Positions 8,421 through 42,798 of a stretch of 57,998 nucleotides of DNA are shown here, piece by piece. The notes beneath the pieces were generated by a model. It searched no databases and had not been told where the DNA came from. It saw only the letters and a program-made list of their open reading frames with translations. Position 1 is the stretch's first letter. Every line of letters begins with the position of its first letter. Made by a program: the position numbers and the translations under genes. The stretch lies in contig JAKPCG010000106.1 in assembly GCA_029553365.1 (NCBI GenBank), positions 67,130-125,127 on the forward strand, given 5' to 3'. This DNA comes from Acidobacteriota bacterium (GTDB taxonomy: Bacteria > Acidobacteriota > Aminicenantia > Aminicenantales > Saccharicenantaceae).

Positions 8421-8668
8421 CCGGTAAAAGTCTAACGGATGCTTTCCAGGTAAATAGCCCCGCTCGCTCCTGAAGATAAAATGGGGAGAATGGTTGTAAA
8501 ATGGAATCGGGTATATGAGAGTGAAGAGAGGAAGCGACGGCACTCCTGGGAATTTTTTCTAATGTCGATGAGTTTGGCGGTGATGATCAGGTTACTTCTG
8601 ATGAAGCAGATAAATGGAAGAACTAACCCGGATAATAGCCTGGCCAGGGCAAGGTAGAGTTAATCAAA

Positions 8669-10114: not shown

Positions 10115-10216
10115 TAGATATGGATGATGACGGTCAAGACGGTCAAAAGTTTTCTGGCTGGCCTGGGGTCGGTGAAAAGGGCAACATAAAAGCTAATATT
10201 TTCTGCTGAGTTAGAC

Positions 10217-10699
10217 ATGCTTGAAACAGTTTTGTTAGTTGCCGGTTCTTTGCTTCAGCTGCTTGGTTTAGCCGGAAGCATTTTACCCGTACTGGCCGGT
10301 CCTCCTCTTAATTTTCTGGGTATTATTTTGCTTGGCCTGGCCCGGGGCTGGGAGACTTTCAGCCGGCCACTATTGTTTAGCCTGGCAGCTCTGACCATTG
10401 TTTCTGTTTTTGTTGATTATTTTCTGCCAGTCAGGGGGGCGAAAAAATATGGTTCCACCAGCTGGGGAAGCTGGGGTGCCTTTTTTGGAATGGTTATCGG
10501 CGTCTTTTTCTTTCCGCCTTTTGGTTTGATCATTGGAGCCCTGGCCGGAGCTATCAGCGGCGAGTTACTGGCCGGCAAAAGTGAATCTTCTGCTCTGAGA
10601 GCCGGCTGGGGAGTTTTGCTGGGCTATTTTGTCTCTCTACTTGTAAGACTCATTGCTTCTGGCCTGATGACTTTTTTTTATTTCAGGGCTTTGTTTTAG
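10217..10699 (+). CDS. DUF456 family integral membrane protein
   Basis: 160-aa ORF that is almost entirely hydrophobic, with about 4 TM segments. It has 'GAKKYGS' and 'GLIIGALAGAISGE' glycine-rich helices typical of DUF456. Confidence 0.65.
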   Translation: MLETVLLVAGSLLQLLGLAGSILPVLAGPPLNFLGIILLGLARGWETFSRPLLFSLAALTIVSVFVDYFLPVRGAKKYGSTSWGSWGAFFGMVIGVFFFPPFGLIIGALAGAISGELLAGKSESSALRAGWGVLLGYFVSLLVRLIASGLMTFFYFRALF

Positions 10700-10957
10700 G
10701 TTAGATCAGATCAGATCAGAATGGATTTGCCCTGTGATAATTAGTTTTCTGGAGTGAGATTTCTTCTGAAGCCGGTCTTTTTGGGCATTTATTTGATCTA
10801 TAGGTTGAAAACGGGCGCCTTCTTCCCCGGGACTCCAAAGTCAATACCCTCACTTTCCCTGGCAAACTTTTTGATGTCTAAAAACAGGTACAGATAGAGA
10901 ATTGGCTCTAAGATTTCTGATGCCTTCTAAAACTACAGCGGAGGAGATGGAGCTCGA

Positions 10958-11872
10958 TTAAAGCAGCAGTTCTTGAGCCCAGCCCATGGTCCTTATCTCA
11001 ATATTTTCCAACTGGCTGTGCCCGAGCTTATAAATTTTATCAGCTGCTTCGATCGAAATCGGCGGGGGAGAGATTGGCCAGGGCTCCCCTCTGAGTTCGT
11101 CTCTTTTGGTCTGGATGATCTTCAACCCAACTGCATCGAGAGCAACCGGATCGGTTCCGGCCAGCAGCCCTTTATAAGGCCATCTGTATCTTGGATCAAA
11201 TTGCGGTCCCCGATCACAGACCGGAAGCAGAGCGTCAACAATTATTAACCTGGTTTTCCCTTTGACCGACGGCAGGTGCCAGATCTCGCCCAGCTTGGTG
11301 CTATCTTCATAATGATAATTTCGGGGGGCGCCAGAATACAGGATGTAATTTTTTATCACTGTGCCGATTCCGGTCAGCCAGTGGGCCTTTAGACCAGGCA
11401 GGGAAATCAAAGCGGTGATAGAGCCAAGATCAACTGAGCGTCCCTGGGCCAGCCTGATATTCGCCTCGGGCAGACCGATCGCCAGCAAAGATTCCTGGAC
11501 GATTTCCAGGAGTTCATTATGGGTCGGGTTCATGACCGAGGTTGGTACCAGCCCGACGACATCTTTTGGACTGAAAAGTTTTAACCAGGCCTTTTTCATT
11601 TCCTTTTCGCCCGTCAGAGCAGTCATGACCTCTCCAACCATGGCTTCCATAACTTTTTTATCTACTTTCTGGCTGCTGTCAAGAACATGTTCATTGCGGA
11701 CAACAAGAACCAGGCTTTTCTGGTCGGCAGCTGATTTGATCCCCATTTTTCCAGTCCCGGCTTTGAGCCAATCAGGCAGCACAGTCAGGCCCAGGGCCGT
11801 AGCTGCCGTCCCGCGCAGAAAGTCTCTCCTGGTTATAACTTCTTTTTTAATCTTCACTTTTCTTTCCTCCAT
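10958..11872 (-). CDS. Tat-signal DUF362 domain protein
   Basis: 304-aa ORF with an N-terminal 'ITRRDFLRGTAATALGLTV' twin-arginine signal. The body resembles DUF362. It lies 4 nt downstream of the preceding same-strand gene, so the two are likely an operon. Confidence 0.65.
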   Translation of the reverse strand: MEERKVKIKKEVITRRDFLRGTAATALGLTVLPDWLKAGTGKMGIKSAADQKSLVLVVRNEHVLDSSQKVDKKVMEAMVGEVMTALTGEKEMKKAWLKLFSPKDVVGLVPTSVMNPTHNELLEIVQESLLAIGLPEANIRLAQGRSVDLGSITALISLPGLKAHWLTGIGTVIKNYILYSGAPRNYHYEDSTKLGEIWHLPSVKGKTRLIIVDALLPVCDRGPQFDPRYRWPYKGLLAGTDPVALDAVGLKIIQTKRDELRGEPWPISPPPISIEAADKIYKLGHSQLENIEIRTMGWAQELLL

Positions 11873-11875
11873 TAC

Positions 11876-12922
11876 TCAGGTGCTTTTAATTGTTTTAAAG
11901 TTCAGCTGACTGAAAATATCAGTAACCGCTTTCTGGTCTGGACATTCAAAGGCAAAAGCCAGATAGTTACCGAACAATGTCCAGCCCAGCCAGCCATCTT
12001 CAACCCTGGTACTGCCTGTTTTGAGCAAACCCGGACTGAGGTCAACCTGATCTGTCTTTTCGGGCAAATACGATTGAAAGAAAGAGGTAAGAGCAGCCAG
12101 TGCAGCTGGAGCTTCGGGATAATGGATGACAATAAGTTTAGCCAGCTGGCTCCCGGGCTGTCTTTCCTTTTTTTCAAAGCAAATGAACAAGCCTTCGGTG
12201 GAGTGATTCAAATTTAGAATATTTTCATGACTCAGGTAATAAAGCGAGTTTAGAACCAGATGTGAATGAAAATAGGCGGTTCTATCCGGTCGTATTTTCC
12301 AGGCAGAGTCGGTGGAAGGAACAACGACGTCGAGTATAGCCGGTGGAGGCTGAGCGGGGCTTTTGCCGGCCAGGATTTTTCCCAGCTTTAAAATTGTCTC
12401 CCTGACATCAGGTGTTTCTCTCGAAGCTAATATTCGGAGATAAAGACTATCAGCTCTGGCCCGCAACAATCCCTCACCATATAAAGCGGTGTAATCCGGG
12501 CAAACGGGGTTTTCGGACCGGACAGCAGGAGCGGAGCTCAGGTTGACGGGTTCACCCGTCCAGTCGAGAGACAGCAGGCCAAACGTCTCATCAGGGGTTT
12601 CCATCTGGTAGATTTCGACCAGCATCTCTTCCTCGGGTTCCCTGTTATAACGGTAAACCAGGAGACTTTTGAATTTATAGGCCAGGTAAAGCTCGCCGCC
12701 GCCATCCATATAATCAAAGATGGTAGTGTGGTCAATTCTCTGAGGCGGTCCCTCCACCTTCCAGCCATCAATGGTTTCCGGCAGATTAATCTCCTGGTTA
12801 CTGTGCATCTCTGGAACTCCTCTTGCCCAGGTCGAAAATAGACAGAACAAAATTAAAAGAGTCAACAGGCGGGAACCAATGGGCAAATTATATATATGTT
12901 TGCTCCTCATGTCTGATTCCAT
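11876..12922 (-). CDS. hypothetical secreted protein
   Basis: Long minus-strand ORF. The start is probably ATG 12922 or 12910, giving a signal peptide (MRSKHIYNLPIGSRLLTLLILFCLFSTWARG). The ORF-track start at 13003 adds a non-signal extension. I recognise no family motif. Confidence 0.6.
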   Translation of the reverse strand: MESDMRSKHIYNLPIGSRLLTLLILFCLFSTWARGVPEMHSNQEINLPETIDGWKVEGPPQRIDHTTIFDYMDGGGELYLAYKFKSLLVYRYNREPEEEMLVEIYQMETPDETFGLLSLDWTGEPVNLSSAPAVRSENPVCPDYTALYGEGLLRARADSLYLRILASRETPDVRETILKLGKILAGKSPAQPPPAILDVVVPSTDSAWKIRPDRTAYFHSHLVLNSLYYLSHENILNLNHSTEGLFICFEKKERQPGSQLAKLIVIHYPEAPAALAALTSFFQSYLPEKTDQVDLSPGLLKTGSTRVEDGWLGWTLFGNYLAFAFECPDQKAVTDIFSQLNFKTIKST

Positions 12923-13112
12923 TCTAACTTGACTCAATTTTATAATCCAGAGAAATTTAAGAAACTTCCTGGATGGAATAAAGATAAAATTTCCGGTGGC
13001 CATCAGACTGCTTACTTATCTTGTTTATGGTCAAAGAATCATGTCTGTCCGGGTCTCTGATCTCCAGTGATGACGAGAACTCACCGGCCAAGCAAAAGCG
13101 AATTTGAGCTGC

Positions 13113-13364
13113 TCAGCGGGCCTTTCTTCTAAATAAGCTGATAATGAAAAGGATGATAAGAGCTCCGATTATAGCCCCGATAAAACCGGCCGTCTCTCCT
13201 GGCTCATAAATTTTCAGAAACTGACCCAGATAAGTGGATAAAAATGAGCCAGCAATGCCCAGCAAGGTGGTCATGATCCAGCCCATATTTTCTTTACCGG
13301 GAAAGATCAATTTAGCGATAACTCCGGCAGCCAGTCCAAGAAGGATTGTCCAGACAATGTGCAT
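13113..13364 (-). CDS. GlsB/YeaQ/YmgE family (transglycosylase-associated) stress membrane protein
   Basis: 83-aa ORF with three TM helices rich in glycine (GLAAGVIAK, LLGIAGSFL, GAIIGALIIL). Size and pattern are typical of the family. Confidence 0.78.
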   Translation of the reverse strand: MHIVWTILLGLAAGVIAKLIFPGKENMGWIMTTLLGIAGSFLSTYLGQFLKIYEPGETAGFIGAIIGALIILFIISLFRRKAR

Positions 13365-13421
13365 AACACCATCCTTTCTGGTCCAATTTTTCTTGTTATT
13401 ATTTACTTTGCCAGCAATATT

Positions 13422-13449
13422 TTGACCGGCCGGGCATTGGTTTTATAAT
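13422..13449 (+). promoter_or_regulatory. candidate sigma70-type promoter (TTGACC-16 nt-TATAAT)
   Basis: TTGACC at 13422-13427 and TATAAT at 13444-13449 with a 16-nt spacer. It sits about 90 nt upstream of the 13536 CDS. Sequence match only. Confidence 0.4.
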
Positions 13450-13535
13450 CTGGACTTTATCTGTTACAATAATCAAAAATCGGAACAGGTGGCGGTGCAT
13501 ATTGACATCGCCCTCAGATAAACAAGAATTGGCTG

Positions 13536-14132
13536 GTGAGGATGGCCATCTTCAAATCAACCAAACCGGAGAGCCTGGCTAGTGGAGCCAATCTGATTAC
13601 ACTTCTTCGCTTGTTTTCTTCGCTTCTGTTTTTCTTCCTGGCTGCTGTCTATCACCGTGAACTGTATAATTATCTCGGTCTCGGTCTTCACTGGCTGGGC
13701 GACTGGCTGGACGGCTTCTGGGCTAAAACCTTTAAACAGAGAACAATTCTGGGAGCAGAGATAGACATTATCGCCGATCGGGTGGAAAGCCTCTTTTTCT
13801 TTATCAACTTCATTTCTTTCCATCCAGCCCTGGTTTTGCCTGTTGCTCTTTACATGCTAAACTTTGCCTTTATTGACTTTTATTTGAGCTATCAATTTAT
13901 TAAGTTTGATCTAATTTCAGTTGATTTTTTTTATCTGGTTGACCAAAAAGTTTTCAAGTTTAATTTCAGTCAACCAGGTAAATTTGTTAATTCAACTGTT
14001 ATTCCCCTTCTCCTCATCTTTTTGCCGCAGCTCTGGCCCCTGACTCTAATTCTGACGGCCGGGCTGATCTGGATTAAAATTGATTCAATTCTTATTTTGA
14101 GAAAAAAGAAAATTCAGGCTATTCAGATCTGA
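13536..14132 (+). CDS. CDP-alcohol phosphatidyltransferase family membrane protein
   Basis: 198-aa hydrophobic ORF. 'GDWLDGFWAKTFKQRTILGAEIDIIADR' fits D-x2-D-G-x2-A-R...G-x3-D-x3-D. The start is GTG 13536 or ATG 13542. Confidence 0.65.
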   Translation: MRMAIFKSTKPESLASGANLITLLRLFSSLLFFFLAAVYHRELYNYLGLGLHWLGDWLDGFWAKTFKQRTILGAEIDIIADRVESLFFFINFISFHPALVLPVALYMLNFAFIDFYLSYQFIKFDLISVDFFYLVDQKVFKFNFSQPGKFVNSTVIPLLLIFLPQLWPLTLILTAGLIWIKIDSILILRKKKIQAIQI

Positions 14133-14271: not shown

Positions 14272-16290
14272 CTAATCAATATAGCCGAGGGAGCGGAGTT
14301 TCTCTTTTTCAGCCGGGCTTATCCAGCGACGTTGACTTTTGAATACCTTTTGTCCCGCTAGATTTATTATTTTATGGAGAGAGGTCAGCAGCTTCATCGT
14401 TTCTTCGGGATAAGTGGCTGACAGATCGTTTTTTTCCTGAGGGTCATCGGCCAGATTATAGAGCTCCGTCACTTCCTCTGAACTAAAAACCGAATGGATG
14501 ATTTTCCAGGGGTAACTGACGAGCGACCAGGCCCGTTGAGAACCCTGAGTTAGTTCTGAACAGATTGGTTGTTTTTTCTCCGGCTCTCTTCCCTCACCAA
14601 GGGCCTGGCTCAAATCCTCTCCTTCCAGAGGATAAGCTAAGCTGATGACCTCATTCAGGCCAAGTAGATAGAATAAGGTTGGAAATAAATCCAGCAGGGA
14701 AACTGTTGTGCTGATTTTCAGGCCGGCAGGTAACCAGCCTTCTCCGCACATGATGAGTGGAACGCGAATGAGCTCCTGATAGAGGGAATGCCCATGACCC
14801 CAACCACGGTGATCAAAGAATTCTTCACCATGATCAGCGGTGACAAGGAGCAGCGTATCTTTTAATTTATCTTCAGTCTGGAGAAATTCAAGCAGCTGGC
14901 CGAGCCAGTAATCATGGTAAGCAATCTTGGCGTCATAAAAAGCTATCATCTTTTGCCGGTCGGCTTCAGCTATCTCCGGACCTGATCTAAATGGTAAAAA
15001 CAATCCCAGTCCTTGAGGAAAAGTCGTTGGCCAGCTCTGGCTTTCTGGTAGGTTTTCTTCTGGCCAGAATTTTTTGATGAAGGCAGTTGGAGCCAGATAA
15101 GGGGCATGTCCTCCTTCCAGATGAGCCAGCAGGAAAAATGGCTTATGGGCATGATTTTTAATCCAGTTGGTCACTCTCGAAGTCATGGCTTCCGGGTCAG
15201 TTGAGGCCAGCTCGGTTTCTCCAAAGCTAAGAGTAGCCAGTTTCTGGCTCAGAAGATAAACTGGTTTTAGTCCCTGGCTGACCACCGGCAGGCGCCTAGA
15301 GCGGTCGAGAATATGACCAAAAATCGTCTTATAGGCTTTTACGGAGAATTCGTCCGGGGCAAAAAAACGGTCCAGACCTTTATTGTATCCATAGGCCGGT
15401 GAGAAATATGGATTAAAGGAAAAAGCCGCCGTATTATACCCGAGGGTCTTAAAAACCTGAGGCATAATGATGAGGCTCGATGGAAGATAGGAGGTGATGT
15501 CATTCATCTGGTGGGAGGTGGGCAGTGTCGAGGAAAGAAGTGAAGGTATGGATTCGACTGTATGAGAAGAAGCAGCTATGGCCTGTTCAAACAATATTCC
15601 CCGGCTGGCCAGTTGATCCAGAAAAGGGGAAGTTTGGCGAGGATAACCATAGCAGCTTAAATGATCGGCTCGAACGGCATCCCAGACGACGAGGACAACG
15701 TTTTTAGCTGATTGTCCGGAAACAGGGGTTAAAGCCTGTTCTTCATTCCCCAGCCTGTGCTGGCGGATATTAGTCTGGGTCAAAAGTGCCACCAAACCAG
15801 CCAGTAAAACAGCCAGGTGAATAGCCAGATAACTTTTCCAGAAGAGATTAAATGATGGTGCCTTTTTTTTGAACTTTCGCCCGAGAAGAACAAGGCCAGC
15901 CACAGCCAGAATGAAAATAATGGCATTTAAGGCAATAGCCGACCGGTTCAGAATGCCTGCGAAAATATAAATATTGATAAAACCCTGGCCTAAAAGCCAG
16001 GCAGCAAAATAACAGAAGATAATAAACCAGGCTAAACAATTTGTTTCCTGTGGTCTTCTCCTGACAGCCAGCCAGATAGTCCAGGCCAGGCCGGCAGCCA
16101 GGCCGATGACCAGCCAGAGCAAACCGTGCCAGATGGCAATACCAGCCAGGTCGGTGAAATCAAAAATTGAGTTTCCCTTCAGCCTTTCAAGAAGAACATT
16201 CCATTCACCCAGACATATTCCGCCCAGCAAGCCACTTAAGGGACCTACCAGGAGCGGGGTGAAACCCAGATGCTGTCGTTTTGCATTCAT
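14272..16290 (-). CDS. membrane-anchored sulfatase-like (alkaline phosphatase superfamily) hydrolase/transferase
   Basis: 672-aa ORF with about 5 N-terminal TM helices. These are followed by 'VVLVVWDAVRADHLSCYGYPRQTSPFLDQL' (sulfatase N-terminal metal site) and 'VTADHGEEF...GHGHS'. Confidence 0.8.
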   Translation of the reverse strand: MNAKRQHLGFTPLLVGPLSGLLGGICLGEWNVLLERLKGNSIFDFTDLAGIAIWHGLLWLVIGLAAGLAWTIWLAVRRRPQETNCLAWFIIFCYFAAWLLGQGFINIYIFAGILNRSAIALNAIIFILAVAGLVLLGRKFKKKAPSFNLFWKSYLAIHLAVLLAGLVALLTQTNIRQHRLGNEEQALTPVSGQSAKNVVLVVWDAVRADHLSCYGYPRQTSPFLDQLASRGILFEQAIAASSHTVESIPSLLSSTLPTSHQMNDITSYLPSSLIIMPQVFKTLGYNTAAFSFNPYFSPAYGYNKGLDRFFAPDEFSVKAYKTIFGHILDRSRRLPVVSQGLKPVYLLSQKLATLSFGETELASTDPEAMTSRVTNWIKNHAHKPFFLLAHLEGGHAPYLAPTAFIKKFWPEENLPESQSWPTTFPQGLGLFLPFRSGPEIAEADRQKMIAFYDAKIAYHDYWLGQLLEFLQTEDKLKDTLLLVTADHGEEFFDHRGWGHGHSLYQELIRVPLIMCGEGWLPAGLKISTTVSLLDLFPTLFYLLGLNEVISLAYPLEGEDLSQALGEGREPEKKQPICSELTQGSQRAWSLVSYPWKIIHSVFSSEEVTELYNLADDPQEKNDLSATYPEETMKLLTSLHKIINLAGQKVFKSQRRWISPAEKEKLRSLGYID

Positions 16291-16354
16291 TATGTTTTAT
16301 AAATAACAAAACTTATTAAAAGAGACAAATTAAAAAATGGTGGAGAAAATATTC

Positions 16355-16381
16355 TTGACTTTTGTCAGGTATAAATATAAG
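16355..16381 (+). promoter_or_regulatory. possible promoter for the giant-ORF pair (TTGACT ... TATAAG)
   Basis: TTGACT at 16355-16360 and TATAAG at 16376-16381. The spacer is only 15 nt, which is suboptimal. It lies in an AT-rich 196-bp divergent intergenic region. Weak, sequence match only. Confidence 0.25.
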
Positions 16382-16486
16382 TAAGGCAGAGATCAAATTA
16401 AGTGCAGAATTTACACTGCAGAAGGGTTAGGGCATAACTTCCCAAATAAAAGAGAATTAGTCTGCTTATCTGTTGAGGAGGGCAAG

Positions 16487-19400
16487 ATGTCTGATGCTCA
16501 CCTTAAGAAAGCTGACCAGTCAGGCGAGAAGCCAAAGACGCCAGCTATAACCAGAAGAAAGTTTTTATCTTATGCCGGCGTATTAGGTGCTTCTCCTTTT
16601 GTCGCGCAGCTGCCAAAAGTTCAGAAAAAAATAGTCAGCCAGGCGAAAATTTATATCCAGCCGGCGGGGCTGATTTTTAATGTCCTGAGACCGGACGACT
16701 TACTCTGCCTGGATTTCGAGTTTATTAATTTTAAGGTACTCAATCTACCCAGGCCTCATCTGGTTAAAGAGAATCGTCAGCAGCCTGCTTATATGATTGT
16801 ACATTTCCCGCCGCAAAGTGTGGCTGAAAAAGTCTTCTATGAGACGACTCCGGAACTAAAAGATACCGGTCAGCCCGAACTCCCCCAGCCCCCTCCCATC
16901 TTTTCAAGGATATCAGGACCGGCTCGCCTGAGCTTCATCATTCCGGATGAAATCAATGAAATCCCGCTGACGCTTGAATCTCTTTTAGCCTGGCAGCTTT
17001 ATCAGCCCAGCCTGGTCCCGGTGGCACTGCCACCCGATGCTTCCTCCCGGATAACAAGGAGAGTTGCCACTTCTGGAAAAGGGAGTTCTAATTCTGCGGC
17101 CAGATCTGTTCTGGTTGCCAGCGGTCCAGCCGGTCAGAATCTTCATAGTCAGAGAGACCAGCTGGCCCGGGTCCAGTACAGCCAGCTAAACAGGTTGTTA
17201 CTTAAACCTGCTGCCCCGCAGAAAAATCAGACAGCTATTGAGATGCCTTACCGGCTCATCCTGTCACCAAATGTCTACAATATCTGGGTTCATGCGGTTA
17301 AGCCTGTTTCGATTAATGGTTGGACGGAGCTCTGGCAGACGAGACTGGCAGCTCTAAATCCTGATGGCTCGATAAGTGAATCAGATAATCCTTATTTAGC
17401 CCTGAGAGCGGTCTGGTCGCCAGATGTAGATCTGAATAACCTGACCGGCCCTCTTTCATCAGAGGAAGTCCGTCTGCCCCTGACCGCAAATGATCGTCAC
17501 CAGATCGTTCACCTCAGCAGTAATTTTACACTAAAAAAACCTGACCAGAGTCCTTACGAACCGCAGCCTATCCGGGTTAACAGAATGATGCTCAGCTCTC
17601 TTGGAGCCTGGCTTGATTCGATAGGTAACTGGTCTCCGGTTTCACCTCTATCGGTAGTTACCTGGCAACACCTGGCGACAATGGGCCGGGATCATTATGT
17701 CCGGGTTGTCTATAAGGGCTATCTGCTGCCTTTCGGTCATCGAGCCTCCCTTGTTAAGGTAACTGAGAGAAAATTTTATAAGGCCTCAGATGGCCAGAAT
17801 TTTGCCTACCTCCTGCAGAAAATGTATATTGCGGTCAGCCAGCCCGAGAAGACTTTTCCTGCTCCTTTTCAGCCCAACGAAGGTCGGGAAATACCATTTC
17901 GGCTGGTTAAAATTACCAGTCTCCAGACACCACCTCTCGACCGCCCTGAAGATAGCCAGGTTCTTTCCAATTCGGGCCAGAAGGCTTTCTGGCCAAAAGT
18001 CGGCAAAAAAGACTTTCAATTTCAGGTCACGGCAACTGATGTTGAAGGTCATGAAATTGAGTTTCAGCTGCCGATGATGTTTATTGACAATCAATATGCT
18101 TTTGATGTGACCAGCCTGAAGTCCTTAGTTGGAATTTATAATTCTGAGGATGAAGGGGCAGTTAAAAGAAGAAAACCTGACCTTCGCGGGCAGAGTCTAT
18201 CTCTGGCTGCAGAGCGGATGGAAAAAGATACAACCTTTGAGGCCGAGTCTATGACTTTCGAGTTGAGAGAAGCTGTCCAGGCTGGATCCAAACAGGCTTT
18301 TGAGCTGGCCGATCAGCCCATGTGTTTCCCGGCTATGGACAGGGCGGTTATAGCCATTCCGGCTCTGAAAAACCTGCTGGGTTTAGGCCGGACCACTGTC
18401 AGGTTTGCTGAGACGTATATCCAAAATGGTTTCAACCCTTCAGCCAATAAAGGGGAGATTTTTATCCAGATTCTCGAAAACCCACCATTGCTGGATTTTA
18501 CAGCTGGCGGCCGGGCAGAAAAATCAGGTGGCCTGGCTACGCCGAATTTTTATCTGGTCGGGCTATCCAGAATCCTGGGCCCGGTGGGTGGACAGATTGG
18601 TTCGGCTTCGGCTGAACCGCAGCCAGATTGGTCTTCTGGTCCACGAGCAGACGCTGACCAGAAAGTTCTGGATGAAAAGGATATAAAGGAAGCTCTTAAG
18701 GAGGCGGTTGAAGGTAAATTCTATCCGGAAAAATTCTTTGACAGCAAGGCCAAAATACTGGGCGGCATTTTGCTCAAAGATGTGGTTGATAAGGTCGAAG
18801 ATTTTGCCAGTCCAGTAAAAGACGCTCTTGACAAAGGGCAGCAGCTGGCCGGAGATTTGTCTCCGGCTCTCAAAATTAAAACCGAGCCGGTCTTTGAAGG
18901 TAGTGGTCAGCTGCCGGTTGGAGTCAAAACTTTTCTTAAGTGGACACCAGGTCTGCATGACTTTTCTATTTTCATAGCCAGCCGCGACAGGTCTAAATCC
19001 AGGCTCACCCTGAATGTCGAAGCAGTATCCTATTTCAATGGGAAAGAAGCAACTTATCAGGTCAAGGGTGAATTAACTGATTTTACGCTGGACTTGATTA
19101 AAGATATCAAGACTTTTGTCCGGGTCAAATTCTCTCGCTTTACCTTTACCGCCCAGAATGGACAGAAACCAGACGTTAACCCGGAAATTGCCTCTCTGGA
19201 ATTCAGTGGTCCTTTTAAATTCATCGAAGGTCTTCTCAAGGCAATTCCACTCCCTGGTAACTTCGGCAGCCGGTCGGGATTTGGTGGGAAGCCCGTGGTT
19301 AAGGTTGAACCGGAAGGAATTAGACTGGGTTATTCTCTTTCAGTACCTGATGTTGGTTTTGGCGTCTTTAGCCTGCAAAATCTCAAATTCGGCGGTGAAA

Positions 19401-19921
19401 TCAGCTTACCTTTTACGGGGGAACCGGTTTCTCTGAAGTTCGCCTTTAATGAAAAAAGCAATCGCTTCCTGGTGACAGTGGCGATGTTTGGTGGTGGTGG
19501 ATTTTTCTCCCTGGTCCTGGAGCCGAACGGTATTAAGCTGGTGGAAGGCTCACTTGAGTTTGGTGGTAGTTTTGCCATGAATTTAGGGGTGGCCAGCGGC
19601 GGGATGGCTTTAATGGCTGGAATCTATTTCAGATATGAAGAAAATGCCGTTAATATTTCAGGTTATGTGCGCTGTACAGGAGAACTTGATGTCCTGGGTC
19701 TGATCAGCATTTCAGCTGAATTCTATCTTGAGCTTAACTATGAGGAACTAAAAAATAAAGTCTGGGGTCAGGCTTCGCTCACCGTCAAAATCAAACTCTT
19801 ATTTTTCAGTACAAAGGTAACTCTGCATGTCGAAAGAGAATTTGGCGCCTCACCTCCACCGCTTTTCAGCGACCTGATGGAAGAGAATGACTGGCTGGCC
19901 TATTGTCAGGCCTTTGCCTGA
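16487..19921 (+). CDS. giant hypothetical protein A (1144 aa) with twin-arginine signal; no recognisable domain family
   Basis: Uninterrupted 3.4-kb ORF with SD GAGGAGG at 16476-16482 before ATG 16487. The N-terminus 'TPAITRRKFLSYAGVLGASPFVA' matches the Tat consensus (S/T-R-R-x-F-L). The C-terminus is glycine-rich and hydrophobic. I found no enzyme motif. Confidence 0.85.
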   Translation: MSDAHLKKADQSGEKPKTPAITRRKFLSYAGVLGASPFVAQLPKVQKKIVSQAKIYIQPAGLIFNVLRPDDLLCLDFEFINFKVLNLPRPHLVKENRQQPAYMIVHFPPQSVAEKVFYETTPELKDTGQPELPQPPPIFSRISGPARLSFIIPDEINEIPLTLESLLAWQLYQPSLVPVALPPDASSRITRRVATSGKGSSNSAARSVLVASGPAGQNLHSQRDQLARVQYSQLNRLLLKPAAPQKNQTAIEMPYRLILSPNVYNIWVHAVKPVSINGWTELWQTRLAALNPDGSISESDNPYLALRAVWSPDVDLNNLTGPLSSEEVRLPLTANDRHQIVHLSSNFTLKKPDQSPYEPQPIRVNRMMLSSLGAWLDSIGNWSPVSPLSVVTWQHLATMGRDHYVRVVYKGYLLPFGHRASLVKVTERKFYKASDGQNFAYLLQKMYIAVSQPEKTFPAPFQPNEGREIPFRLVKITSLQTPPLDRPEDSQVLSNSGQKAFWPKVGKKDFQFQVTATDVEGHEIEFQLPMMFIDNQYAFDVTSLKSLVGIYNSEDEGAVKRRKPDLRGQSLSLAAERMEKDTTFEAESMTFELREAVQAGSKQAFELADQPMCFPAMDRAVIAIPALKNLLGLGRTTVRFAETYIQNGFNPSANKGEIFIQILENPPLLDFTAGGRAEKSGGLATPNFYLVGLSRILGPVGGQIGSASAEPQPDWSSGPRADADQKVLDEKDIKEALKEAVEGKFYPEKFFDSKAKILGGILLKDVVDKVEDFASPVKDALDKGQQLAGDLSPALKIKTEPVFEGSGQLPVGVKTFLKWTPGLHDFSIFIASRDRSKSRLTLNVEAVSYFNGKEATYQVKGELTDFTLDLIKDIKTFVRVKFSRFTFTAQNGQKPDVNPEIASLEFSGPFKFIEGLLKAIPLPGNFGSRSGFGGKPVVKVEPEGIRLGYSLSVPDVGFGVFSLQNLKFGGEISLPFTGEPVSLKFAFNEKSNRFLVTVAMFGGGGFFSLVLEPNGIKLVEGSLEFGGSFAMNLGVASGGMALMAGIYFRYEENAVNISGYVRCTGELDVLGLISISAEFYLELNYEELKNKVWGQASLTVKIKLLFFSTKVTLHVEREFGASPPPLFSDLMEENDWLAYCQAFA

Positions 19922-19935
19922 AAGGGAAGACGAAA

Positions 19936-22900
19936 ATGCCAAAATCAACTGTTATATGGACGCTATGTCCTAATGGTATAAAAGATGGGAAATTGCAGTT
20001 GTCGGCGGTAGTCTCTATCCGCCTGGAAGAGGAGGGCAGAGGGAGAACGCCCAGCCTGAATTTATTTCCAGATATCCTGAACTGGCCGGAAACTGTTCGA
20101 GCTTTAAATTTCGGGGTGATCTATGATAAGAAAAAAAGCCGGGAGCCACTGGCGATAAAAAGAATTTCTCCCGAGCCTGAGCTGGAACTCTGGCAGGCCA
20201 TATTCAAGCCAGAGGCTCCGGTTTTCTCCTACCAGCTGGCTGACCTCAGTAAAAACCTGGTCATTTCCTATCCGGTGAGAAATGTTATGACCTTCGTGGC
20301 TGCTCAGTACCTGAATGTAGCAGCTGAATCTCCGGAAGAACCGCCGCCCATAGCCAGAGTTTTTCATACTGATGGACTGGCTCAGATTCGCCTGAAGCCA
20401 ATTACCGACCACCGCTATGCCAAGACCGTTCAGCTTAAAACAACCCAGCCGATTATGGCTCAGTCAGTCAGGCGCGAAGCCGAAGGCCAGAAATTCAAAG
20501 CTGTTCAGGTTTCTCCTTTGCCTCAGCCTCCCCGGGACTTTTATCTGCTCAGAGAATTTTACAAACCAAAAAACAGGGTGACCATTGATCCCAAAACCAG
20601 ACAACCGATAGCCCAACGAGTCCCTGTTACTCGACCTCAGCCCGATTTTCACCAGGTTCTGGCCTTCCTGACCAGCTATCCAGCTCTCGAAAGGTTACTC
20701 GGTTTGGTGCTCGACTTTGAACTGGAAGTCCCGCCTGACTTTCCAGCAGCTGGCTGGATTAAATTAATTCCAGAAGGAAGAAGTGATGAAACTCTAAGGA
20801 CTGCTTATAACTATGATGCCTCAGGTGGAATTTTTGAAGCTGCCAGCCACCAGCAGCCACCTGAAGTTGTCCATGGTTTTCTAAACCTGGCTGATGAGGA
20901 AAGATATGAGCTGATCCAGCTCGATGTTGACGCTGTTGCCCTCCAGACGGCTGAGCTGGCCGACACAGCTGAGACCAGGGAAAAGGCTGACCTTCCCGGC
21001 CTGCGTTCAAGTGGGCTGGGGGTGATCAGAAATGAACAGGCAAAAAATGTAGCTGAAATCCTGGTTAAAGCTGTCGAACTCAATAACGATTTAATCAGGA
21101 AGCAAGAAATCACACTTTTTGCTGAAGACCTGATCCAGGGCTATCGGATTGATGTCTGGGACGATAAGTCGCAAAAATGGCACTCTCTCTGCCAGAGAGA
21201 AGGAACTTATCGATTGGTCAGGCTAGATAAGGAAATCACTCTGGAGGATGAAGGCTTCCTGTCACCGGCTGTCACCCAGGCAGCTGATGAATCATCCAAT
21301 GAAATCTATGTTCACGAAGCTCTGTTTCACTGGGATGGCTGGAGTCTGGTAGCTACCAGGCCCGGCAAGACTATTGACCGGGATGATGCCCCCCAAACTA
21401 TAGAAAACAAAGCCCTGAGTGATTTTTTGCTCGAAACCAAATTCAAGCCTGTCTCCAGATCACTGCCGAAGCTGCGCTACGGCACCGGCTACCGGTTGAG
21501 AGCCAGAACGGTAGATCTGGCTGGAAACAGTCAGCCGCTTGAAAACAATGATGATCGGCAGGCAATCCCGGGGCCAGCCAATCCGCCTTTTATTTTCAGT
21601 CGCTTTGATCCTGTTGCTTCTCCAGTTATTATCCCCAGAGAAGAACCAAAAACAGGCGAGACGGTGAGCCATCTGGTTATCAAAAGCTTTAATGATTCTA
21701 TTGACGGGGACAATGAACCTACCTCTCAGACATCTGACCGGCATCTGGCTCCGCCCAAAATCTCTCAATTTGACTCTGAACTTCATGGGCTGTTTGATAG
21801 TCCTTCCGGTCTTAAGCCTGAGGTTTATTCTCTAATCTGTCAGAAAGATGCTGGTAGATTTAATGAACTCGAGCCGGGAGATGAGGTTGAGCTACCCTAT
21901 TTTCCAGACCCCTGGGCGAGAGGAGTTTGTCTGCGTGGCTTACCTTATGGAGCGCCGGATCCCTGGCTGATTCCTTTTGTCGGCGACTGGCCTGATTTCC
22001 GGCCTTTCCGCCTGAGACTGGAGGAAGGTAGCCAGCCTGCCCGCTGGTCTGATTCTTCGCGAGTGCTAACAGTCTATCTTAAAAAGGGAGAGTCGGTGAG
22101 GCTTCGTCTCAGCTGCTATTTCCCGGAGAGATATCTCGAAATTCAGGGGTTTTATCGCTGGCTGGAAAAGCCAGAAAGAATACTGCCACCCAAAGTGATG
22201 AAGCCACCACGTGGCTTGCCTGCAGGACAGGTACAGACATTAAAGACTCTTCAGGTACCAAGAATAGACCTGAACCGGCTCAGGACTATTTCTCTGCAGG
22301 GAAAAAACTGGCTGATAACACCTTTTGAAGAGATTACCCTGAGTCATGCCACTCTTCAGCCAGTGGGTCGCCCTCAAGCCAGATTTCTGGAGGCTCAGAA
22401 AAGTTATGGGCAGACCGCCGCTATTCTCTTCGGGGAATTTGGAATTCATGGCCAGAGTACTTCCAGAGTTGAGTTGATAGCCAGCTGGTCAGAGCCAGTT
22501 GACGATCTGAATGAACCGGAACCAAAAGTTCTTGAAAGCCGGGCTCATGTTCTCGAGTTGACCGTCACTCCCGAGATGAGCTCAATCTCACTTACTCCAA
22601 AGACAGGGGAGAGACGGATCGAGGATTCAGATAATCAGCAACAGGTACCCAGGCCGATAACCAGTGCGGCGGTCATTGGTCTGCCTACCCCCGTTTATCG
22701 GCAGGAGTTTGGAGATACCAGGTTCCGACGGGTTAATTACAGCCTGATAGCGACGACCAGATATCAGGAACAATTTCCAGCCAGCGAACTGCCCAGGGAA
22801 GCTATTTATACCAGAAGTAGCCAGCCAGTTGAAGTCAAAGTATTAAACTCAGCCCCACCGGCCATGCCCAAAGTTGCTTACGTTATTCCCTCATTTAAAT

Positions 22901-23946
22901 GGGAGAGGAAACGTGACCGAAATCAGATCCAGAGCACCAGAAAAAGCGCTTTGCGGGTTTATATCGAAAGGCCCTGGTATTCTTCGGGCGAAGGCGAACT
23001 TCTGGCCGTTATTCTGCCTCCCGGGCTGGGGGTTACGCCCAAAAAGCGTAGCGGGACCGTGGTGACAGGTGGAGTAAAAGATCAAACCGTCACTGCCGGG
23101 GGAACACAGCCGCCAGTCCAGGTCCGGCCCCAGGTCCAGAAAAAAATTACCCAGTCACCTGTTTCACTCCACTTTCCGGCTGTGGCTACGGAATACAGAC
23201 CATATGTTAGCATGTGGGGAGCTGATCCGCTCTGGAAATCAGGCAGCACCTGGCCTCCGGAATATCCATCACCCGAGGCTTTTCCGGCGGCAGTAGAAAT
23301 AATGGGGGAGCTGCCTCTGCTGGAAATGCCCGAAGAAAAAAAGTTCATCGCAGTTGGCCATGAAGTAGAATATGATAAGGAGCGGGGACTCTGGTATTGT
23401 GATTTAGAGCTTGACCCGGGTCAAGCTTATTTCCCATTTATCAGACTGGCTCTGGCCAGATTTCAGCCTGACTCAGTTCCTGGAGCTCATTTGTCGAAAG
23501 TGGTGGTAACTAATTTTGGGCAAATTCTGCCTGAGCGGGTGCTGGGCGTCACTTTTAATCCATCTAATCTGGCGGAGATAGGTTTTACTTTGTCCGGGAT
23601 TTCGTATAACAGGGGATACGGGGCTGACGGGCCGGGAGTGGTCGAAGTCTCTCTCGAAACGAGGAAACTCAATCTACCCGAAGAAATCGGCTGGGAAGAA
23701 GTTCCAGAAACTTCAATTACCCTTAAGCCCCAGAGCTCCGGGGCAAGGGAAAGCAGTTGGTATGTCTGGAAAGGATGTCTGAAACTGCCGAAGGAAATAA
23801 AAGTTCGGGACTATCGGCTGACCATAAGAGAATATGAAATTTTTGACACTGATGAACTGGACAGGACCACAGCCACCGTCACCGCTGTACCCAAAAAATT
23901 TAAGCGACTGGTTTATGCCGAAACCATCAAATTGGCTGATCTATAG
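19936..23946 (+). CDS. giant hypothetical protein B (about 1336 aa), no signal peptide; no recognisable domain family
   Basis: Uninterrupted 4.0-kb ORF. ATG 19936 lies 14 nt after the TGA of ORF A (19919-19921), with a purine-rich AAGGGAAGA just upstream. The ORF-track start at 19903 is a TTG inside ORF A. No TM segment or signal is visible. Confidence 0.85.
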   Translation: MPKSTVIWTLCPNGIKDGKLQLSAVVSIRLEEEGRGRTPSLNLFPDILNWPETVRALNFGVIYDKKKSREPLAIKRISPEPELELWQAIFKPEAPVFSYQLADLSKNLVISYPVRNVMTFVAAQYLNVAAESPEEPPPIARVFHTDGLAQIRLKPITDHRYAKTVQLKTTQPIMAQSVRREAEGQKFKAVQVSPLPQPPRDFYLLREFYKPKNRVTIDPKTRQPIAQRVPVTRPQPDFHQVLAFLTSYPALERLLGLVLDFELEVPPDFPAAGWIKLIPEGRSDETLRTAYNYDASGGIFEAASHQQPPEVVHGFLNLADEERYELIQLDVDAVALQTAELADTAETREKADLPGLRSSGLGVIRNEQAKNVAEILVKAVELNNDLIRKQEITLFAEDLIQGYRIDVWDDKSQKWHSLCQREGTYRLVRLDKEITLEDEGFLSPAVTQAADESSNEIYVHEALFHWDGWSLVATRPGKTIDRDDAPQTIENKALSDFLLETKFKPVSRSLPKLRYGTGYRLRARTVDLAGNSQPLENNDDRQAIPGPANPPFIFSRFDPVASPVIIPREEPKTGETVSHLVIKSFNDSIDGDNEPTSQTSDRHLAPPKISQFDSELHGLFDSPSGLKPEVYSLICQKDAGRFNELEPGDEVELPYFPDPWARGVCLRGLPYGAPDPWLIPFVGDWPDFRPFRLRLEEGSQPARWSDSSRVLTVYLKKGESVRLRLSCYFPERYLEIQGFYRWLEKPERILPPKVMKPPRGLPAGQVQTLKTLQVPRIDLNRLRTISLQGKNWLITPFEEITLSHATLQPVGRPQARFLEAQKSYGQTAAILFGEFGIHGQSTSRVELIASWSEPVDDLNEPEPKVLESRAHVLELTVTPEMSSISLTPKTGERRIEDSDNQQQVPRPITSAAVIGLPTPVYRQEFGDTRFRRVNYSLIATTRYQEQFPASELPREAIYTRSSQPVEVKVLNSAPPAMPKVAYVIPSFKWERKRDRNQIQSTRKSALRVYIERPWYSSGEGELLAVILPPGLGVTPKKRSGTVVTGGVKDQTVTAGGTQPPVQVRPQVQKKITQSPVSLHFPAVATEYRPYVSMWGADPLWKSGSTWPPEYPSPEAFPAAVEIMGELPLLEMPEEKKFIAVGHEVEYDKERGLWYCDLELDPGQAYFPFIRLALARFQPDSVPGAHLSKVVVTNFGQILPERVLGVTFNPSNLAEIGFTLSGISYNRGYGADGPGVVEVSLETRKLNLPEEIGWEEVPETSITLKPQSSGARESSWYVWKGCLKLPKEIKVRDYRLTIREYEIFDTDELDRTTATVTAVPKKFKRLVYAETIKLADL

Positions 23947-24013
23947 ACAAAAATTCAAATCCATCCATTCCGGGCTTTTGTGCAGTCCGAGCTGATCTTG
24001 CCACTCCAGTCCA

Positions 24014-24523
24014 TCAGCGATGCTGAACTATATTTTTTACAGTAATATAGGGATTAAAAATGTACCCGCTGCCAGTCCAGCTGTGAGAGCGTTCAGCATC
24101 AAAATCGAGGGTCAGCTTGGTGGTCGTATCTTTGGCAATCGTAAAGTGGCAGGGTAAGGCCACGGTTATCGCCGGTGTCATATCAATGGTAAAAGTTCTT
24201 TCAGTGGTGATAATCTCTACCCTGGAGATGACCAGCTTGAGACCGGAATAAGTTCCCTCGGGCAAATTCAGGACAGCCAGCCTCTCTTCTCGGCCGCGAA
24301 GAGGCAGGAGATCAATTCGCTTTGGTTCGGTTAAAAGATTATCTGTCCAGCTCTGGCGATCTTCATTCCGAAGATATATAGCCTCCAGGGTGATATAAAA
24401 GTTCTGCAGGTTAGGAGCTGGAGCATCTGTCAGATATAATTCAAAATTAGAAGAGGATTGTGGAGAACAGCCGAACTGACTGATAATAAAAACAAAAGCC
24501 AGGAACAGGCCAGCCTTTTTCAT
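24014..24523 (-). CDS. DUF4382-like small lipoprotein
   Basis: 169-aa ORF with signal peptide 'MKKAGLFLAFVFIISQFGC' (Cys after the hydrophobic core, lipobox-like). It is followed by 'LYLTDAP', which I associate with DUF4382. Confidence 0.6.
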   Translation of the reverse strand: MKKAGLFLAFVFIISQFGCSPQSSSNFELYLTDAPAPNLQNFYITLEAIYLRNEDRQSWTDNLLTEPKRIDLLPLRGREERLAVLNLPEGTYSGLKLVISRVEIITTERTFTIDMTPAITVALPCHFTIAKDTTTKLTLDFDAERSHSWTGSGYIFNPYITVKNIVQHR

Positions 24524-29103: not shown

Positions 29104-29169
29104 GCTATGTTGCCAGGCTCCACGCCTTTTTTTATAATTGAGGGGAAAATTTCCGGAAAGAAGGTCAGA

Positions 29170-30201
29170 ATGAAAGTTGGTAATTTGCAAAAATATCTTT
29201 TATCCGGGGTCTCTTATGCTATTCCCTTTGTCGCTTCAGGCGGAATATTAATTGCTCTGTCGATAGCTCTGGCTCCGATGGGCCCCGGCGGACCGGATTT
29301 CAGCCAGGCTCCTTTTCTAAAGTTAATAAATGATATTGGCACAGCCGCTTTTTCTTTGTTGATTCCTGTTCTTTCTGGCTATATTGCTTTTGGGATCAGC
29401 GATCGACCCGGTCTGGTACCGGGCTTTGTCGGCGGCTATATCGCCAATCAGGTTGGTGCCGGTTTTCTGGGCGGTCTGGTTTCAGGTTTGCTGGCCGGCT
29501 TTCTGGTCTTCTTTCTCAAGAAAATCAAAGTCCCGAGCTATATCCGACCGGTTATGCCTATTTTGATTTATCCGGTTATTTCCTCATTAATTGTCGGGAT
29601 AGTCATGTATCAGGTGGTTGGTGCTCCTATTCATGATTTAATGGCCAGTATTACCAGCTGGTTACAGGTCATGCATACCGGCAATAAAATTATTCTGGGA
29701 ATTATCCTTGGATCGATGATCGCCTTTGATATGGGTGGACCGGTCAACAAGGTAGCTTTCTTTTTCGGGGCGGCGATGATTCAGCAGGGAAATTATCTGA
29801 TCATGGGGGCCTGCGCCTCAGCTATCTGCATCCCACCTCTTGGCCTTGGCCTGGCCACCCTGATCAATCGAAAGCTGTGGACCGAGCAGGAACGAGACGC
29901 TGGCCTGGCGGCTCTGGCCATGGGAGCTATTGGTATAACCGAGGGGGCCATTCCTTTTGCCGCCGCCGACCCCTTCCGGGTAATTCCAGTCATTATGGCG
30001 GGTTCGAGTCTTGGTTCTGTGCTGGCCATGCTGGGACAGGTTGGAGATCATGCTCCTCACGGCGGGCCAATAGTTTTGCCGGTCGTTGATAATAAACTTA
30101 TGTATATCGTGTCTATAATTGCCGGCACTCTACTGGTAGCTGGTTTGATGACATTAATTAAGGCCAGGAGCAGAAGGTCAGGGGGAAGTTCTCCAAAATA
30201 A
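29170..30201 (+). CDS. PTS fructose-family EIIC permease component
   Basis: Polytopic membrane ORF. 'GGILIALS', 'AFDMGGPVNKVAFFF' and 'ITEGAIPFAAADP' are typical of fructose/Fry-type IIC. ATG 29170 is preferred over the upstream ORF-track start at 29107. Confidence 0.85.
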   Translation: MKVGNLQKYLLSGVSYAIPFVASGGILIALSIALAPMGPGGPDFSQAPFLKLINDIGTAAFSLLIPVLSGYIAFGISDRPGLVPGFVGGYIANQVGAGFLGGLVSGLLAGFLVFFLKKIKVPSYIRPVMPILIYPVISSLIVGIVMYQVVGAPIHDLMASITSWLQVMHTGNKIILGIILGSMIAFDMGGPVNKVAFFFGAAMIQQGNYLIMGACASAICIPPLGLGLATLINRKLWTEQERDAGLAALAMGAIGITEGAIPFAAADPFRVIPVIMAGSSLGSVLAMLGQVGDHAPHGGPIVLPVVDNKLMYIVSIIAGTLLVAGLMTLIKARSRRSGGSSPK

Positions 30202-30320: not shown

Positions 30321-30632
30321 ATGAAACTGGTGGCGGTTACTGCCTGTCCAACAGGCATTGCTCACACTTATATGGCAGCTGAGCAACTGGAGCGGGTGGC
30401 CAGGAAGATGGGTTTGTCAATTAAAGTTGAAACCCAGGGGGCCATGGGTATTGAAAATGAGCTTGATCCTGACGAGATCAGGGAAGCAGCGGCGGTGATC
30501 CTGGCTACCGGTATTCCCATTCAGAAAAGCGAAAGATTCGAAGGGAAAAAAATCTTTGAGTTTTCTGTTCAGGAAGCCATTAAAAATACTGAGGGGATTT
30601 TGCAGAAGGTAAAGGAACAAATTGGCGGTTGA
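30321..30632 (+). CDS. PTS fructose-family EIIB component
   Basis: 'MKLVAVTACPTGIAHTYMAAE' contains the phospho-Cys motif of fructose-type IIB. GGAGG at 30311-30315 precedes ATG 30321. ATG 30309 is also possible. Confidence 0.88.
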   Translation: MKLVAVTACPTGIAHTYMAAEQLERVARKMGLSIKVETQGAMGIENELDPDEIREAAAVILATGIPIQKSERFEGKKIFEFSVQEAIKNTEGILQKVKEQIGG

Positions 30633-42425: not shown

Positions 42426-42798
42426 CGAAGTGCTCTCTTTCTTCCAGATCAACATTAATGTTTAAGAATTATAATCTAATCAGGAGCGAGATCAAAGCCG
42501 GACAGCCGCTATCATCCTCAGCAGGTGTCAGTCGGGCGGGTTTTTCAGCGCTTAACCCTATTGGATTGATTTCCGGAGTCAAAGATCGCCAGTTGCTTTC
42601 AAATTTTATTGATAAGAAAATCGGGACATGATAACATTTGCTTAAGTTACTGCTGCCACTGATTTCCCGCCGATGGAGGAAAGAGACAGCCAGCTAATCA
42701 ATTATAAAAAATAATAAAGATTTCAGCCTGTTTTAGATGATAGGAAGTGAGTCCCGCTTGAAATTGACTTTAAATTTATAAAGGGAGTCGGAGCTTAA

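Follow-up and report, generated by a model that had tools for sequence, protein, structure and literature searches.

A widespread operon of two giant uncharacterized proteins, the first with a candidate twin-arginine leader

What do two adjacent, very large genes encode, and where do their products act, when neither protein resembles a described family? The question is raised by a 57,998-nucleotide (nt) stretch of contig JAKPCG010000106.1 (assembly GCA_029553365.1) from an Acidobacteriota bacterium, whose proteins are 98% identical to those of a Candidatus Saccharicenans metagenome-assembled genome (MAG; Aminicenantes, Acidobacteriota). This whole stretch is called the window below, and the coordinates of its features are positions within it. 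We analyzed the two large genes, here named A and B, that fill 16487 to 23946, and we find that they are an autonomous, co-inherited two-gene operon encoding members of two uncharacterized families. The operon is built from the following elements:

16472-16478, plus strand: Shine-Dalgarno sequence of A, GAGGAGG, 8 nt before the ATG, read in the sequence
16487..19921, plus strand: gene A, ATG start, 1144 residues (aa), 126.5 kDa, uncharacterized family
19922..19935, plus strand: A/B spacer of 14 nt, containing the weak ribosome-binding site AGGGAAG
19936..23946, plus strand: gene B, ATG start, 1336 aa, 150.7 kDa, second uncharacterized family

Gene A closes with a TGA at 19919-19921. The mechanically called open reading frame (ORF) of B opens at the TTG at 19903; however, the homologues all begin MPKST or MAKST, and the true start of B is therefore the ATG at 19936. 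A and B lie in different reading frames, which precludes a read-through fusion and leaves two separate proteins. The initial annotation, made from the letters and their translations, had described a strong Shine-Dalgarno sequence ahead of A, a start of B 14 nt beyond the A stop codon, and a co-transcribed pair; the first two readings were borne out at the positions listed, and the pair proved to be a real, tightly linked operon, in A-then-B order with a short gap, that recurs across many phyla.

In 74 of 80 loci the next gene downstream of A, on the same strand, is B, and the two are separated by 0-340 nt, mostly 13-40 nt (counted from the last sense codon of A to the first codon of B, stop codon included; 74 loci). 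Four of the six loci without an adjacent B stop at contig ends, and five additional loci (L081-L085) all carry the pair. Adjacency and co-occurrence, which had been put forward as the test of the pairing, thus hold at 74 of the 80 loci and fail at two that lack an adjacent B, the closely related L046 (A at 8504-13588) and L054 (A at 8525-13588), where there is room downstream. In both, A is ~1,690 aa long and is followed, ~500-800 nt on, by a gene for an M3-family peptidase (572 aa); B may reside elsewhere in these genomes or may have been lost. Pairwise distances among A proteins track those among B proteins (r = 0.964, Mantel p <= 0.001, 66 loci), and distant pairs taken alone give r = 0.60. 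No conserved third gene was found: clustering of neighbors by BLAST returned local synteny among close relatives only, and of the 141 flanking ORFs of distant loci at most three share any Pfam or PADLOC family, with no enrichment for defense genes.

Neither protein could be assigned to a known family. Searches of A and B against Pfam, NCBIfam, PADLOC, and PHROGs gave no match at E <= 1, bar a sub-threshold signal for twin-arginine translocation (Tat) on A; Pfam searches on 30 diverse members of each family returned solely Cohesin, on one A variant (P0080); and searches of the PDB by sequence and by family profile returned no match for A or B. Walker A, HExxH, and CxEQ motifs are absent from both proteins, the Cys residues (4 in A, 7 in B) are all isolated, YD dipeptides number 0 in A and 3 in B, and neither tandem DNA repeats in the operon nor internal profile repeats in A or B were detected. 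Homology of A to B was tried with hhalign and rejected. No paper naming accessions or locus tags of the two families was found for those tried. These results agree with the initial annotation where it had called the pair free of Walker A, HExxH, Cys clusters, and tandem repeats and had considered both proteins undescribed: every one of these negatives holds, the profile and PDB searches leave no match covering either protein, so that the novelty stands, and AlphaFold models compared by Foldseek yield no convincing fold match, with generic similarity only at a template-modeling score (TM) of ~0.1. The roles it had proposed (toxin or pore, S-layer, glycan machine) found no specific support, there being no enzyme motifs or repeats and no conserved glycan-related partner.

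The description of the pair as orphan stands for annotation and fails for distribution. Homologues of A fall into at least 1,572 clusters at 90% identity and those of B into at least 182; every cluster name is "hypothetical" and none has a Pfam domain. An exhaustive phmmer search with the C-terminal domain of A recovered 3,248 clusters (50% identity) at E <= 1e-3 and 1,546 at E <= 1e-30, and the domain always lies at the extreme C-terminus in these 3,248 clusters. A-family proteins come in two size classes, ~1,000-1,150 aa and ~1,400-1,800 aa. When one genome per species was scanned, A turned up in at least 569 species, with carriers among the Acidobacteriota, Symbiobacteriaceae, Armatimonadota, Chloroflexota, Actinomycetota, Ignavibacteria, Bacteroidota, and Geobacter, and with Cyanobium sp. 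CH-040 and Cohnella cellulosilytica among the cultured ones. The carriers, among which are Bacillus, Cohnella, Chloroflexota, and Actinomycetota, comprise lineages with one membrane and lineages with two. Homologues occur on 22 plasmid or chromid records, which include Bacillus cereus-group megaplasmids, Rhizobium, Streptomyces, and the chromid of Cupriavidus metallidurans CH34. No homologue was found in GenBank phages, and the pair is present on 1 of 2.9 million IMG/VR contigs; a phage-borne module was rejected on these scans.

Some records call for caution. On plasmid pRlX2 of Rhizobium ruizarguesonis (L084, 9875-14117), A is annotated as two coding sequences of 838 and 520 aa and is probably disrupted, B is intact at 1,569 aa, and genes for IS630 and IS6 transposases and for a patatin-like phospholipase lie close by. 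Several carrier labels are doubtful, namely a "Helicobacter pylori" record (GAA7764178.1) that falls in the Cupriavidus cluster, a "Mycobacterium leprae" MAG, and archaeal MAGs assigned to Nitrososphaerales, Methanomassiliicoccaceae, and Methanothrix; such labels probably stem from binning errors or contamination, and they give no ground for placing the module in archaea. In one Cupriavidus record A is called an "ABC transporter substrate-binding protein", a label that nothing in the analysis supports.

To describe the architecture of the two proteins, we combined AlphaFold2 models built on family alignments with the conserved columns of those alignments. The models reached a predicted local distance difference test score (pLDDT) of 79.3 and a predicted TM score (pTM) of 0.67 for A, and a pLDDT of 82.4 and a pTM of 0.66 for residues 137-1336 of B. 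The parts of the two proteins are as follows:

16550..16606, plus strand: Tat-type leader core of A, TRRKFLS (residues 22-28) and hydrophobic h-region YAGVLGASPFVA (residues 29-40)
16664..18853, plus strand: core of A, residues 60-789, several beta-rich domains, pLDDT mostly >85
18854..19918, plus strand: C-terminal domain of A, residues 790-1144, from the AlphaFold2 model and invariant columns
21463..21531, plus strand: invariant motif of B, LPKLRYGTGYRLRARTVDLAGNS, residues 510-532, with R514, R522, R524, and D527 invariant
22609..22683, plus strand: variable linker of B, residues 892-916, pLDDT <50 (model 756-780), gapped in pairwise alignments
23053..23166, plus strand: variable linker of B, residues 1040-1077, pLDDT <50 (model 904-941), variable in alignments

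The core of A includes long hairpins at residues 362-450 and the invariant motifs VLRPDDLL, HFPPQ, TELWHTRL, and GRDHYV..VYKGYL.PFGHRASL.K.TERKF. The best-conserved part of A is its C-terminal domain, where amphipathic, glycine-rich beta-hairpins of 12-19 residues are arrayed with short turns on both sides; this domain carries the motifs FGGGGFF (1001-1007) and GVASGG (1034-1039) and ends in an invariant helix and the tail W..YC.AFA. B is modeled as a chain of beta-sandwich domains with no long helical domain, and pairwise alignments extend its homology over the full length at 29-34% identity to proteins from Symbiobacteriaceae, Pyrinomonadaceae, and one further MAG. In Foldseek searches of the PDB, the best matches of A are MTP, Deinococcus SlpA, LptD, and porins (E >= 2e-4, query-normalized TM <= 0.13), with SDBC, TamAB, ApoB, and P47 also matched; a search of viral structures (BFVD) gave no match for A beyond generic ones at TM ~0.1. 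For B, the same comparison with the PDB returned A2ML1/alpha-2-macroglobulin, complement C3-C5, mastigoneme, arrestins, and cytokine receptors, with E down to 4e-7 yet TM of only ~0.09-0.13.

Long-form homologues of A (L001-L003, L024-L053, and others; P0062-P0120) are ~1,400-1,800 aa long and carry, between leader and core, an extra N-terminal domain of 400-600 aa with the consensus ..R.AFKLGG.ERWVID.RRFGGSP.L... They also have a conserved motif, R(L)NL.ALR, ahead of the arginine pair of the leader; such conservation is unusual for a Tat n-region. The signal-less A proteins of Cyanobium, Geobacter, Cohnella, and B. bombysepticus keep a related motif (ELNTTFLKQ, RLSFGTL).

The main clue to function is the predicted export signal at the N-terminus of A. 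The Tat consensus is S/T-R-R-x-F-L-K near the N-terminus, followed by a moderately hydrophobic h-region and a c-region with basic residues. A has T-R-R-K-F-L-S, a motif it shares with most homologues, behind an n-region reported as 22 residues; the best 12-mer of its h-region, YAGVLGASPFVA, has a Kyte-Doolittle mean of 1.32, and the basic c-region QLPKVQKK follows. The leader region is helical and of low confidence in the AlphaFold2 model. Among 10 diverse A N-termini, a Tat model is the top NCBIfam match in eight, with TIGR01409 scoring 12-18 bits and one of the 10 passing the cutoff. Signal states were called in 66 complete loci by a refined motif search and inspection by eye, and an export signal is predicted on A in 48 of them. 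Counted within these 48 are two variants, L039 and the related protein P0080, in which a Sec-like leader and a cohesin-like domain replace the Tat leader; P0080 has the Sec-like signal MKETRRVLVLALLVMSSCLLAALVLIPQTAEA and a Pfam Cohesin match (E 1.4e-4), and the same region is read in L039. Cohesins are extracellular modules. In all 76 loci examined for it, B lacks a signal, and the conservation of its N-terminus begins at residue 1. Thus, in the forms that bear a leader, the signal sits on one subunit only, as in a Tat hitchhiker pair. Judged by these features, A is probably a true Tat substrate in this genome. The claim that the pair is exported can accordingly be kept in part: it is plausible for A, given TRRKFLS, the h-region, the basic c-region, and a leader kept in most relatives, and it needs qualifying in view of the absence of a signal on B and of the A proteins without one that are counted below, so that export is not a universal trait of the family. 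In one Symbiobacteriaceae MAG (L001, 18280-18456), and in that lineage only, a tatA gene (TatA_B_E) directly follows B, which may be a coincidence.

The reading that we favor, tentatively, is that A and B form a 1:1 complex of ~273 kDa that is exported by Tat in the folded state, with B hitchhiking on A, and that acts at the envelope. The operon would yield similar amounts of two very large proteins, both non-repetitive and mostly beta, of which A bears the candidate twin-arginine leader and B none; the two would fold and associate in the cytoplasm, and the folded ~273-kDa complex would then pass through Tat, with B as the hitchhiker, to work at the envelope. There, the glycine-rich amphipathic hairpins at the C-terminus of A would touch the membrane or another hydrophobic surface or ligand, and the beta-sandwich chain of B would serve as a binding scaffold. 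This reading draws on several pointers to an extracytoplasmic site, namely the cohesin variants, the tatA gene in L001, and the fold matches of B to extracellular beta-sandwich chains. On grounds of parsimony, B should travel wherever A is exported, because obligate partners should share a compartment. The parts of this reading differ in strength: that B hitchhikes on A is conceivable, well short of an even chance, and a membrane role of the complex is less probable than the hitchhiking.

Several observations weigh against this joint export. The leader of A scores 15.7 bits with TIGR01409 (N-terminus alone; 12.7 bits for the full-length protein) against a cutoff of 16.7, and it lacks a clean AxA cleavage site. 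A has no signal in 18 of the 66 complete loci (27%), so the core function must work without Tat export too. These signal-less proteins fall into at least eight separate sequence clusters (Anaerolineae/Thermoanaerobaculia, Cohnella/B. bombysepticus, Cyanobium/Geobacter, Cupriavidus CH34, B. tropicus, and others), which implies repeated gain or loss of the leader. Signal-less carriers include C. metallidurans CH34 with WP_011519122.1, Bacillus tropicus with WP_071680225.1 and WP_248140061.1, and Cohnella cellulosilytica. In the same 18 loci neither A nor B has a signal, and the one-subunit pattern is thus not a property of the family as a whole. The indication for a putative physical association of A with B is their co-divergence (r = 0.96), and the membrane-binding and scaffold roles would draw on generic features of the models and on fold matches at TM ~0.1. 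Finally, there is the matter of size. A has a mass of 126.5 kDa (~122 kDa when mature) and B of 150.7 kDa, which sum to ~273 kDa, and long-form A homologues with a leader reach 157-197 kDa alone. Tat cargo is quoted at up to ~150 kDa (PMC6708511), and a ~273-kDa complex, with its ~2,480 residues, is nearly twice that limit. We put less than even odds on A and B crossing Tat as a ~273-kDa heterodimer, or as one of >300 kDa with long-form A.

An arrangement in which the Tat leader exports or anchors A alone, with B remaining in the cytoplasm as an assembly or holding factor or as a partner across the membrane, would explain why B has no signal in every locus, would stay clear of the problem of the ~150-kDa cargo limit, and would fit the short conserved gap, which favors B meeting the nascent C-terminus of A. 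However, a conserved multi-domain B of 150 kDa would be far bigger than any known Tat chaperone; in the signal-less lineages the two proteins share a compartment, so that a split elsewhere would need two modes of action; and the beta-sandwich chain of B resembles extracytoplasmic proteins. We consider this arrangement unlikely. A two-component secreted toxin or membrane attacker, with the hairpins of A inserting, B binding or delivering, and release via Tat, lysis, or another route, strikes us as distinctly improbable. Its appeal lies in the patchy, transfer-prone distribution (Bacillus cereus/thuringiensis-group megaplasmids, Rhizobium plasmids, Streptomyces), in the long amphipathic hairpins of A with their short turns and invariant glycines, in the barrels and porins among the Foldseek matches of A, and in the mixed signal states, which recall large leaderless toxins; on the other hand, the neighborhood holds no conserved immunity-like or lysis gene, no similarity to known toxin families was seen, the putative inserting domain shows the strongest conservation within A, an unusual trait in a toxin, and the host is an anaerobic sediment or digester organism in which the operon has a base composition like that of the chromosome.

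To each of the other two readings we assign a small probability. The autonomy of the two-gene cassette and its horizontal spread, the 27% of the family without a signal, and the setting of the Bacillus tropicus copy among HNH endonuclease, helicase, HD, and DUF4143 genes would be in keeping with a cytoplasmic, membrane-associated stress or anti-phage module whose Tat-like N-terminus is a membrane anchor, which is very unlikely in view of an empty PADLOC search for A and B, flanks without defense enrichment, the lack of any ATPase, nuclease, or nucleotide-binding motif in A or B, the lack of a counterpart in phage genomes, and cohesin-fused variants that point outside the cell. Equally slim is the prospect of a structural envelope or surface assembly (S-layer-like, or a periplasmic scaffold), or of a carrier of lipids or hydrophobic ligands that uses a beta-sheet groove in A. 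The Foldseek matches of A (SlpA/SDBC, LptD, TamAB, MTP, ApoB, P47) are large lipid-handling or envelope sheets, and A and B are large, beta-rich, and Cys-poor; but the query-normalized TM of these matches is <= 0.13, no SLH or other anchoring domain is present, lineages with one membrane and with two carry the pair, some forms of which lack a signal, and so sporadic a distribution would be unusual for a core envelope component. Joint export of A and B remains the reading we prefer, at the tentative strength given above.

The surroundings of the operon in the window were read from the ORF map and from searches for regulatory elements. The features that bound it are as follows:

16291..16486, plus strand: upstream intergenic region of 196 nt, common to A and a divergent LtaS-like sulfatase gene (ORF map)
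23947..24026, plus strand: operon end, a short gap followed by a convergent DUF4382 gene
24014-24026, plus strand: terminator-like hairpin, a consensus match only, not above chance

The upstream region presumably holds the promoter of A, and no sigma-70-like site in 16291..16486 stood above chance. The window contains no tRNA detected by a tRNA search, and no Rfam element or riboswitch was found upstream of A or elsewhere in it. The genes around the operon (DUF362, DUF6599, CDP-alcohol phosphatidyltransferase, LtaS-like sulfatase, DUF4382, CarAB, and phosphotransferase system (PTS) components) are unrelated housekeeping and envelope genes. As the initial annotation had remarked, the other large genes of the window are assignable, to glycoside hydrolase families GH38, GH42, and GH116, CarB, a sulfatase-TPR protein, and a beta-lactamase-family protein. 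The G+C content of the operon (0.47-0.51) is the same as that of its flanks; with this uniform composition and no tRNA, the locus does not have the look of a recent island, and a mobile island was rejected for this genome. The view that the locus is not an obvious mobile island is thus supported here; elsewhere the module is transfer-prone, on plasmids and a chromid.

Individual neighbors are noted for completeness. At 14272-16290 on the minus strand, divergent from A across the 196 nt, lies a gene for a 672-aa LtaS/sulfatase-family membrane protein, a neighbor kept in five loci only, four of which are the closest relatives. A DUF362 protein (10958-11872, minus strand) has a Tat-signal match, PF10518, at E 2.2e-4, slightly under the cutoff, which suggests that the organism uses the Tat pathway. 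At 30622-33144 on the plus strand, a single 840-aa protein fuses the PTS domains HPr, Enzyme I, and EIIA(2), with an EIIC-like gene closely upstream at 29107-30201. A 418-aa ORF beside an amino-acid permease gene (41196-42452, minus strand) has no Pfam match at E <= 1e-5.

What makes the pair worth pursuing is that an operon of two 125-200 kDa proteins, with thousands of clusters, is not covered by Pfam, NCBIfam, a solved structure, or any paper we found, and that it spans the Acidobacteriota, Chloroflexota, Armatimonadota, Bacillota, Actinomycetota, Cyanobacteria, and Pseudomonadota. Tractable carriers (C. metallidurans CH34, the Bacillus cereus group, Cohnella cellulosilytica) make its function directly testable. 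The size limit of Tat is a long-standing mechanistic question; that limit would be put to the test if A, by itself or together with B, is truly exported in the forms with a Tat leader, and the natural signal-less variants would be built-in controls. If joint Tat export is true, the complex would exceed every known Tat cargo by a wide margin and would be the first widespread envelope machine without redox cofactors, drawn from two new families.

Among known systems, alpha-2-macroglobulin and complement C3-C5 (including the bacterial ECAM, PDB 4rtd) resemble B in size and in their chain of beta-sandwich domains, and they rank first among its Foldseek matches (E 4e-7 to 1e-4). Unlike them, B has a TM of ~0.09 to these structures, no CxEQ thioester, no helical region resembling the thioester domain, and no A2M match in Pfam. 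Identity of B with alpha-2-macroglobulin was ruled out because the thioester motif and domain are missing and none of 30 diverse members matches the A2M family. Porins, LptD, Omp85/TamA, SlpA, MTP, and ApoB share with the C-terminal 350 residues of A long antiparallel amphipathic strands. In contrast to these envelope barrels and lipid sheets, A matches at E 2e-4 or weaker and TM <= 0.13, has short turns on both sides and a Tat-type leader, belongs to a family that is also present in single-membrane bacteria, and has no Pfam barrel match. Outer-membrane barrels use Sec. An outer-membrane barrel or a two-partner secretion (TPS) transporter was ruled out for A by the Tat-type leader and the single-membrane carriers.

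The Tc/ABC toxins and the TpsA/TpsB systems are, like A and B, encoded by adjacent genes for very large, beta-rich proteins, are sporadic and plasmid-linked, and include some leaderless forms; unlike them, A and B have no RHS/YD repeats, no TcA, TcB, TPS, POTRA, or haemagglutinin domains, and no fold match. An RHS/Tc toxin, a TPS system, and a haemagglutinin-type adhesin were each rejected, with no Pfam or NCBIfam match, YD counts of 0 and 3, and no repeats; a known anti-phage system was rejected for want of a PADLOC match and because the flanks are not enriched for defense genes.

The closest parallel is the Tat hitchhiker route, known for HybO/HybC of E. coli, DmsA/DmsB, and PaoABC (PMC4273604, PMC6708511). 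The known hitchhiker systems are cofactor-containing redox enzymes of <= ~150 kDa (PMC6708511, PMC4273604), whereas A and B have no cofactor motifs and few Cys residues, sum to ~273 kDa, come from unrelated families, lack a signal in ~27% of cases, and are exported by prediction only. We rate the pair as outside every known kind, a placement that reflects missing knowledge and not a demonstrated new mechanism. By analogy, it would work most like a Tat hitchhiker pair, though not across the whole family, and it shares with such pairs a signal on one subunit, an adjacent signal-less partner, and a stoichiometric operon.

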